Below are positions 10,418-11,732 of a DNA stretch of 12,507 nucleotides, in pieces. The notes beneath the pieces are model-generated. The model searched no databases and was not told where the DNA came from. It saw only the letters and a list, made by a program, of their open reading frames with translations. The first letter of the stretch is position 1; each line of letters starts with the position of its first letter. Source of the DNA: a virus. The translations under genes and the position numbers were made by a program. The DNA is taken from UHGV virus genome UHGV-0291998. The stretch is one strand, 5' to 3'.

Positions 10418-11167
10418 ATGAATATTGTAACCATCAACAACAAACAGTTTCCGGTAATCGAATATCGCGGTCAGCGTGTTGTGACATTTGCAATAATTGA
10501 TGACGTCCACCAGCGCCCGGAAGGTACCGCCCGTGCTGCGTTTAACCGCAACCGTTCTCACTTTATCGAAGGGGTGGATTTTCTTGAAATGACTGCGGAC
10601 GTAATACGTACGGAGTCACTTTCTGATGCCTTTGCCGCGCGAACTGCCAAAGGGATCATTCTTTTCGAGTCTGGTTACCTGATGTTGACGAAGCCTTTTA
10701 ACGATGCTCTTGCATGGCAGGTTCAGCGCGAACTGGTTAACAGCTATTTCCGAACTCACGCGCCGCTGACGGAAATGGAGATGATCGCTGCAATGGCCGC
10801 CGATGCCGTTCGCCAGCAGAAGCGCCTGAGTCATGTTGAAGAGAAGATCGAAACGGTCACCAAAGCTGTGGAGAACATCAAACGCGGCACAATGCGCACC
10901 GGATATGTCGGTTACCGCCAGGTGGTAGCCAAAAGCGGAATGAGTGACGCCAAGTGTCGGAATCTGGTCAACGCCTACCACATCCCTACCGACACGCACG
11001 AATTTATGACTCCGGACGGTCTGTTGTCTCGCAGGGCTGTCGTCGAGCTTGAGACATTTATGGCGGCGTTCCACCAAATGATGTCAGAGGCTGAACCACG
11101 CGGCACACGCTGGTATCACCCGAAGATGGGGCTTTTTCAGGTAATCGGATGGGAGGATAAAGCATGA
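10418..11167 (+). CDS. ORF6N-domain-like protein (putative antirepressor/KilA-type DNA-binding protein), 250 aa
   Basis: Starts MNIVTINNKQFPVIEYRGQRVVTFAIIDDVHQRPEGTARAAFNRNRSHFIEGVDFLEM (GGAG RBS 7 nt upstream), which matches the ORF6N pattern as I recall it. The track start at 10343 overlaps the SPFH gene and lacks an RBS. The stop overlaps the next gene's ATG (ATGA at 11164). Confidence 0.55.
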   Translation: MNIVTINNKQFPVIEYRGQRVVTFAIIDDVHQRPEGTARAAFNRNRSHFIEGVDFLEMTADVIRTESLSDAFAARTAKGIILFESGYLMLTKPFNDALAWQVQRELVNSYFRTHAPLTEMEMIAAMAADAVRQQKRLSHVEEKIETVTKAVENIKRGTMRTGYVGYRQVVAKSGMSDAKCRNLVNAYHIPTDTHEFMTPDGLLSRRAVVELETFMAAFHQMMSEAEPRGTRWYHPKMGLFQVIGWEDKA

Positions 11168-11732
11168 TCATCCAGTCAAAACTTATTCGCGCCGCTCTGG
11201 TGTGCGCTGCTAAAAACGACGTTCGTTATTACCTGAACGGTCTTCACATCACGCCAAAACATATTGAGGCAACCAATGGTTTCGTAGCACTGCGCATGAC
11301 TCACGGCATCCGGACGAAGAAAAACATCATTGTCCAGTTCGAAGGTGGCGTCCCGGCCAAAGCCGAAACGACAGAGCTGATTTTTAGTAAAGAGCCGATC
11401 CTGTTCATCGCGACCAGTTTCAGCGCCGGCTGTCCATTACCGGCATTAAATTGGTGGACGGTTGTTTTCCGGATTTGGAACGCATCATTCCGAAAAAATT
11501 TGACCTCTGTACACACCCGGTGATCCAGGCGGGTTACCTGAGTTATCCAGAGAAGATGTTTGGTCGTGAGCGTAAATTTATTCCCGTCCAGTTACGTTCC
11601 TCCGGTGACGGGCAAGCGGTCAGAATTCAGTTTGATTCCATCATCAACTCAATGTATGGCAATCCTGAATTTGTTGTGATGCCTTGTCGTGATCATGGCG
11701 ATTTCAATGTGGCTCAGGAGCATCCGGAATGA
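11164..11732 (+). CDS. DnaN (beta sliding clamp)-like protein, shortened and split across two reading frames (frameshift near 11420..11450)
   Basis: Frame A (11164..11523): ...AAKNDVRYYLNGLHI...EATNGFVALRM...ILFIATS, matching the E. coli DnaN domain-II stretch QDVRYYLNGM...ATDGHRLAV...FIFTS as recalled. The -1 frame (open from 11391 to 11732) gives ...IKLVDGCFPDLERIIPKKFD...EFVVMPCR, matching DnaN KLVDGRFPDYRRVLPKNPD...YVVMPMRL. Confidence 0.5.

Follow-up and report, generated by a model that had tools for sequence, protein, structure and literature searches.

A frameshifted copy of a short, beta-clamp-like prophage gene and its intact family with a conserved partner-binding pocket

In the UHGV virus genome UHGV-0291998, a sequence of 12,507 nucleotides referred to below as the window, positions 11164-11732 raise the question of what has become of a gene resembling bacterial DnaN, the beta clamp of DNA replication. 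An open reading frame (ORF) of 119 amino acids occupies 11164-11523 on the plus strand, and a second open stretch, in the -1 frame, extends to a stop at 11732. An earlier note, made from the sequence alone, described the locus as a shortened DnaN-like gene split over two frames, proposed that it was a pseudogene, the result of a sequencing error or a case of programmed -1 frameshifting, and imagined a clamp mimic or decoy. Which of these options is correct, and what might an unbroken version of the gene do? In answer to the first question, the region 11164-11732 is a pseudogene of a conserved 570-bp, 189-aa prophage gene located in the early-left operon of a lambdoid prophage. As a whole, the explanation that we consider very probable is that of a dead copy in the window, on the one hand, and of an intact family of putatively ring-less mini-clamps with a conserved pocket, on the other.

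The split over two frames is confirmed. The 119-aa ORF contains the motif DVRYYLNG, identical to residues 150-157 of E. coli DnaN (the reference sequence used here agrees with PDB 1MMI at 366/366 residues). The -1 frame holds IKLVDGCFPDLERIIPKKF...FVVMPCRD up to the stop at 11732, and two of its blocks, IKLVDGCFPDLERIIP and FVVMPCRD, resemble DnaN 235-249 and 359-366, respectively. A megablast search with positions 11000-11900 as the query returned 57 near-full-length matches in complete E. coli genomes. In NZ_AP045178.1, the copy is one 570-bp ORF encoding 189 aa (WP_000586690.1), annotated in RefSeq as a "beta clamp domain-containing protein". Thus, the single intact frame that the earlier note had proposed to look for at orthologous loci does exist elsewhere. 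With respect to this copy, the window gene has four substitutions and one gap, corresponding to a G absent between 11400 and 11401 on the plus strand. The junction reads GCCGATC followed by CTGTTC in the window, as compared to GCCGATCGCTGTTC in the intact gene, and the single gap column is located outside any homopolymer.

The consequences for the reading frame can be followed along the plus strand. Codons 1-79 (11164-11400) are in the native frame and correspond to a part of DnaN domain II including the DVRYYLNG and ATNG motifs, as judged from the alignment with the intact gene, from phmmer comparison with E. coli DnaN 136-254 and from hhalign. According to the comparison of the translations with the native sequence, they are followed by an out-of-frame tail of 40 unrelated codons (LFIATSFSAGCPLP...) closed by a TGA stop (11401-11523). 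Native codons 81-189 and the native stop are now in the -1 frame (11403-11732). They carry what remains of domain II and the KLVDGxFPDxxRxxP linker, followed by half of domain III and its tail FVVMPCR, as deduced from the alignment and from the hhalign comparison of the C-terminal part described below. Because the deletion sits between 11400 and 11401, the segment LFIATSFSAG... of the window is already out of frame, the native sequence at the break being AVHRDQFQRRLSITGIKLVDG. The break had been placed after FIATS (11404-11418), itself taken as DnaN similarity. Both points have to be corrected: the true break is about 7 codons upstream, at 11400/11401, and FIATS is out-of-frame sequence that resembles the FIFTS of DnaN by chance. 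The translation of the window allele therefore consists of 79 native residues and 40 unrelated ones before the stop. The 119-aa product is devoid of the linker motif and of the C-terminal tail, that is, of the linker and tail halves of the pocket discussed below. In view of these losses, no functional product would be expected from the window allele.

A lesion consisting of one missing base may evoke an error of sequencing or assembly, in which case the true genome would have one intact frame, reading GATCGCTG at 11397-11403. Other public frameshift variants of the gene (P0041 and P0061), located in runs of A, could indeed be errors. However, the deletion in the window lies outside such runs, and the window gene is 100% identical over all 569 bp to that of E. 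coli E110019, a finished chromosome in which RefSeq describes the gene as a "frameshifted" pseudogene. Moreover, the exact 119-aa product is recorded in 288 public assembly blocks, including National Center for Biotechnology Information (NCBI) drafts from several projects. The corresponding loci display at least three different flanking contexts or integrases, and those shown are ~99.3% identical to the window. An error is very unlikely in these conditions. The lack of a homopolymer at the deletion, the finished genome of E110019 and the 288 assembly blocks together establish the loss of the G as a real, inherited mutation. Within 5426 complete E. coli genomes, a 41-nt junction query recovered the deleted allele once (E110019), and the matching 42-nt query recovered the intact allele in 57; centred on the deletion, the 41-nt query is unable to seed a megablast match on the intact allele. 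Two further genes of the E110019 prophage are damaged, that of the antiterminator Q by a frameshift and that of TerB by an internal stop, and these defects fit a decaying prophage. The Q reading frame of the window itself is seemingly intact.

Programmed -1 ribosomal frameshifting would join both frames into a full-length protein. In its favor, the second frame lies at -1 from the first, no stop interrupts it before 11732, and the region contains slippery-like heptamers, AAAAAAT at 11493 and AAATTTG at 11496. However, a TAA at 11388-11390 means that the -1 frame opens only at 11391, and a rescuing shift would be confined to 11391-11401. A heptamer scan found no X XXY YYZ heptamer in this interval, the only heptamers being 92 nt further on. 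A shift at 11493-11502 would leave ~31 wrong residues replacing strands and the KLVDGxFPD linker motif. In addition, one ORF of 176-191 aa encodes each orthologue from Salmonella, Klebsiella, Kluyvera, Cronobacter, Serratia, Providencia and Photorhabdus, and the 57 complete E. coli genomes keep the extra G. The two-frame arrangement is thus not conserved in orthologues, and programmed frameshifting appears extremely improbable. A split gene may also be envisaged, with the 119-aa N-terminal fragment and a C-terminal fragment started separately (TTG at 11451 or later) acting jointly or singly. An ORF 11451-11732 exists mechanically and some assemblies have a called downstream ORF of 70-85 aa. 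Nevertheless, a conserved start is absent and no Shine-Dalgarno-like sequence was seen upstream of 11451. Furthermore, native residues 80-95 are absent from both pieces, and two ORFs are not the normal state in any orthologue. We give very little credence to this arrangement. Of the three options raised at the outset, only the pseudogene withstands these comparisons.

The distribution of the pseudogene deserves some comments. The frameshifted allele is found in prophages having different integrases and chromosomal neighbors (set L004-L011); one of them adjoins mlrA (L009) and another one an autotransporter gene (L010). From these differences, we conclude that the dead allele owes its spread to recombination or to phages that are still mobile. 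Among public proteins, additional products of frameshifted forms of the gene are found (P0041, P0047 and P0061). Two of these variants are at A-runs, namely AAAAAA at window positions 11489-11494 and AAGAAAAAC at ~11318. The A5 variant (P0041) was not found in complete E. coli genomes. For this reason, the A-run variants may be assembly errors rather than instances of independent decay. In the Salmonella phage Fels-1 (NC_010391.1, 2529-2849), only residues 80-187 of the mini-clamp are matched, with 72% identity and across two hypothetical proteins; this is probably another broken copy.

What, then, is the intact protein? Taken as a single sequence, an intact orthologue does not reach the thresholds of the curated DnaN families. 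Its match to PF02767 has an expectation value (E) of 0.005 and 17.4 bits, for a cutoff of 27, and that to TIGR00663 an E of 5e-4 over DnaN 136-252 and 19.1 bits, for a cutoff of 137.65. With phmmer, DnaN chains of the PDB are matched with E ~0.003 over 136-254. The deep family profile, built from 146 sequences, gives a different picture. Its hhalign comparison with E. coli DnaN yields a probability of 99.1% and an E of 5.6e-19, so that the similarity for which the earlier note had proposed a profile search is present, below thresholds with one sequence and clear with the family. In a model of a family protein calculated with AlphaFold2 (AF2), having a predicted local distance difference test (pLDDT) value of 90.7, the clamp fold is kept, and many phage proteins of 160-250 aa have the same fold at a template-modelling (TM) score of ~0.8.

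An exhaustive profile search gave 1053 cluster representatives at E<=1e-10. Among the best 150 representatives, most have 170-215 aa, shorter fragments making up the bulk of the remainder. A length of 189 aa is therefore normal and does not result from truncation. In this respect, the earlier note was right to equate the reassembled product with about half a clamp protomer (189 aa vs 366 in DnaN); calling the protein "shortened" holds by comparison with DnaN, but this length is the normal full length of the family and not a one-off. What departs from the family norm in the window is the lack of one uninterrupted ORF of ~170-215 aa. With tblastn, 253 phage records have a match, including many siphovirus genomes of ~45 kb. 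Their annotations vary between 'DNA polymerase III beta subunit', 'beta clamp domain protein', 'DNA polymerase' and 'RusA-like'. The latter name can be related to phrog_3007, which matches residues 1-179 of the intact orthologue with E 5.8e-65 and bears the PHROG label 'RusA-like Holliday junction resolvase'. We did not retain this assignment, which is backed by no other sequence or structure result. The label recurs in many RefSeq phage records, for example NC_054650.1 and NC_031924.1. It is probably wrong and spreading, as the comparisons point to a beta-clamp derivative.

The profile alignment also indicates which parts of the clamp are kept. Family positions 5-177 align with DnaN 136-255 and 316-366, skipping 256-315. 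When the C-terminal part is used alone, hhalign favors DnaN 316-366 (E 6.2e-8) over 260-306 (E 0.045). A preliminary hhalign with 28 sequences assigned this part to DnaN 260-287, in the first half of domain III, a placement overturned by the 146-sequence profile and by the C-terminal-only search. As judged from these alignments, the family corresponds to domain II and the second half of domain III only, that is, to 1.5 domains. Domain I, the domain III helix bearing Ile272/Leu273 and the acidic loop Glu298-304 are missing. In DnaN, the head-to-tail dimer interface involves Ile78/Phe106 of domain I, which pack on the domain III helix containing Ile272/Leu273 (PMC11139829). According to the hhalign mapping, both sides of this ring-closing interface fall in parts absent from the family. 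Finally, there is no helix between residues 26 and 122 in the model, and the second inner helix of domain II is therefore probably lost.

On another hand, the retained parts are unevenly conserved. Eleven positions are conserved in at least 90% of the 146 members (R21, Y23, L24, G26, T37, G39, H40, P64, P103, M173 and P174), followed by Y125 (87%) and R176 (80%), equivalent to DnaN Y323 and R365. We compared them with the list of residues forming the pocket for the clamp-binding motif (CBM), taken from a review (PMC11139829). By the hhalign mapping, 8 of the 11 belong to this pocket: R21, L24, T37, G39, H40, P103, M173 and P174 correspond to R152, L155, T172, G174, H175, P242, M362 and P363 of DnaN. 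With 18 pocket positions among 173 aligned, this enrichment has a hypergeometric p of 3.6e-7. Selection in the family is thus concentrated on the partner-binding cleft, the ring-forming parts having been discarded. The 1.5-domain architecture, in which domain III has lost its first half, and the focusing of conservation on the binding pocket both appear to be new. In contrast, RefSeq already names the family and flags the identical allele as frameshifted. PADLOC returned no defense-system match.

Considering these properties, a mechanism may be proposed for the intact protein. Presumably unable to form a head-to-tail ring or to encircle DNA, it would be a small, probably monomeric binder of CBMs of the QLxLF type. 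In a first version, it would act as a decoy drawing host clamp partners away from the host clamp. Candidate targets would be the clamp-loader delta subunit, Pol III alpha, Hda, MutS/MutL and translesion polymerases. The delta subunit shows ~50-fold better binding to monomeric beta than to the ring (PMC11139829) and is therefore an attractive target for such a decoy. In a second version, the protein would be an adaptor or a ring-less tether recruiting a partner to the DNA or to the proteins of the phage. That the family protein is a ring-less, probably monomeric CBM binder acting as decoy or adaptor is a tentative proposal, which we would grant close to an even chance. The broader idea would be that of a pocket-only clamp, in which phages have cut DnaN to the 1.5 domains forming the cleft and use the monomer to trap or redirect host proteins having QLxLF motifs. 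It is advanced with more reserve, as a real possibility that falls somewhat short of even. The clamp mimic or decoy imagined in the earlier note is thereby supported, specifically though indirectly, in the case of the intact family, the conserved residues being those of the partner-binding pocket. It does not apply to the window copy, where the pocket is lost. In temperate prophages, the gene belongs to the accessory early-left region and lies between the repressor and xis/int; its neighbors include ParE-like, SPFH, ORF6N or Rha genes. Such a location fits modulation of the host better than a core function in replication.

Another possible function would be that of a true processivity clamp holding the host polymerase on phage DNA, either as a ring, for example of four 1.5-domain protomers, or as a ring-less DNA-binding tether resembling UL42/UL44. 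The clamp fold and the partner pocket are retained, and in one metagenome phage contig the gene is downstream of a DnaB-type helicase gene. Many members are basic: the isoelectric point (pI) has a median of 8.4 in the family and is 9.08 for the E. coli prophage protein, as compared to 5.25 for DnaN. By the criterion of Kazlauskas and Venclovas (2011, PMC3201878), a basic pI is typical of ring-less processivity factors. However, the family has neither domain I nor the half of domain III that takes part in the dimer interface, the lack of a helix at residues 26-122 of the model indicates that one inner helix is probably lost, and a quarter of the members are acidic. Moreover, in temperate prophages, the gene is found in the accessory early-left region and not among the replication genes. 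Finally, the frameshifted allele persists in many strains, and the gene is therefore dispensable for the prophage. A true clamp function is unlikely, though of appreciable probability.

Several points nonetheless weigh against the idea of a pocket-retaining decoy or adaptor. The pocket is also the most conserved part of DnaN itself, and homology detection somewhat favors its residues. At the position equivalent to His175 (codon 40, 11281-11283), which in DnaN bridges both subsites of the pocket, His is found in 90% of the 146 members, but Phe in the window and Ser in intact E. coli alleles. Pro146, near-invariant in close relatives, is Ser in the window. These replacements suggest drift in the E. 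coli lineage even before the frameshift. The distribution of pI values (55% above 8 and 25% below 6.5) is mixed, and points neither to a shared DNA-binding mode nor to a preference between decoy and adaptor or tether. No experiment or published function was found for the family in the searchable literature.

The genomic surroundings also bear on the question of function, because the earlier note had linked the clamp-like gene to its ORF6N-like neighbor. The upstream gene (10418-11167, plus strand) encodes an ORF6N N-terminal domain (Pfam PF10543, E 1.6e-12) and a ~130-aa C-terminal domain common to Rha-type proteins, and has the same start in RefSeq orthologues. Its TGA stop (11165-11167) overlaps the start of the clamp-like gene in an ATGA (11164-11167, plus strand), and the overlap that had been noticed is thus verified by both coordinates and sequence. 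At Klebsiella loci, the same 4-nt overlap is observed, with an upstream gene having a pRha N-domain instead of ORF6N and the same C-terminal domain (80% identity). Comparison of window positions 10418-11167 with the Klebsiella locus L012:5303-6004 illustrates this domain swap, ORF6N or the pRha N-domain being carried by the same ~130-aa C-terminal domain. No Pfam family matches the latter, the end of which is a conserved RWYHPKMGLFQ.IGWE segment. An obligate ORF6N/mini-clamp module was considered and rejected. In Providencia and Serratia, another gene lies between the pair; in Shigella phage DS8 and the metagenome phage contig, the two more distant contexts considered, no ORF6N or Rha gene was found near the mini-clamp; and some loci have the ORF6N/Rha C-domain but no mini-clamp. 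Gene order in these loci argues that the coupling is an operon neighborhood within one mosaic block rather than a conserved functional pair. The suggested co-expression is therefore retained as a local operon arrangement with a 4-nt overlap, and not as a conserved two-gene module. The HPKMGLF sequence near the ORF6N C-terminus was also considered as a possible clamp-binding motif. It is kept in close relatives and replaced by HPDFGGF in Serratia; this candidate was judged too weak.

Downstream of the clamp-like gene, on the plus strand, the ATG of a 40-aa ORF (11729-11851) overlaps its stop. For relatives, RefSeq lists the product of this ORF as a hypothetical protein. Next in the same operon comes a DUF4222 gene (11856-12098, plus strand; Pfam PF13973, E 1.8e-15, and RefSeq annotation). 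Further upstream, a ParE-like toxin gene (8694-8912; PF24732, E 3.3e-17) overlaps by 4 nt a 130-aa ORF (8909-9301) with no family match; the two could form a toxin-antitoxin-like pair in the same early-left operon. At the end of the window, positions 12325-12507 of the minus strand encode the C-terminal portion of a transposase of the IS66 family (PF13817, E 1.3e-17). A terminal repeat of the GTAAGCG type begins at ~12294, and the end of the element is near 12290-12300. Similarity to other prophages ends at 12250-12292, and from about this end of the element onward, xis and int follow in relatives such as JNEC-KY202.

The window copy is thus ordinary, one more decayed accessory prophage gene, and of little importance in itself. 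The family deserves attention, with more than 1000 sequence clusters carrying inconsistent labels. It keeps exactly the residues that are targeted in the bacterial clamp by antibiotics such as griselimycin. If a free monomer does bind CBMs, phages would have a new route to manipulate host replication and repair, and the protein would offer a minimal soluble scaffold to study or screen ligands of the clamp pocket. The family would then represent an uncharacterized and very widespread class of host-takeover or anti-repair proteins, present in temperate prophages and in free phage genomes, of which the window copy is a dead example.

How does this family compare with known systems? With bacterial DnaN (TIGR00663; PF00712/PF02767/PF02768; PDB 1MMI), it shares fold and sequence over DnaN 136-255 and 316-366. 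The common motifs are DVRYYLNG, ATxGH, KLVDGxFPDxxRVxP, GFNxxY (in distant members) and VVMPxR, and they carry the residues of the CBM pocket. It differs from DnaN by its size (~189 vs 366 aa), by the absence of domain I and of the first half of domain III, probably by one inner helix fewer, and by its basic rather than acidic character.

Closer are the short phage polIII-beta homologues (Kazlauskas and Venclovas, 2011, PMC3201878), which are also phage clamp homologues without the N-terminal domain. In the searchable literature, this study is the sole earlier mention of such proteins that was found. The short forms are described there as domains 2 and 3, whereas the family considered here comprises domain 2 and only half of domain 3; the window copy differs further in being frameshifted. 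According to the same authors, viral clamp homologues with the appearance of horizontal acquisition are dispensable for replication.

The resemblance to the ring-less processivity factors UL42/UL44 of herpesviruses is an analogy only, with no sequence relationship beyond the fold. Unlike for factors of this type, we know of no phage polymerase partner for the family. Phage proteins targeting the host beta clamp, such as Gp168 of Twort (PMC8565349) and MuC of Mu (PMC12867686), may share a common theme with the family, that of meddling with or borrowing the clamp interaction network. However, Gp168 and MuC are ligands of the host clamp rather than homologues of it, whereas the family protein would imitate the binding site of the clamp itself.

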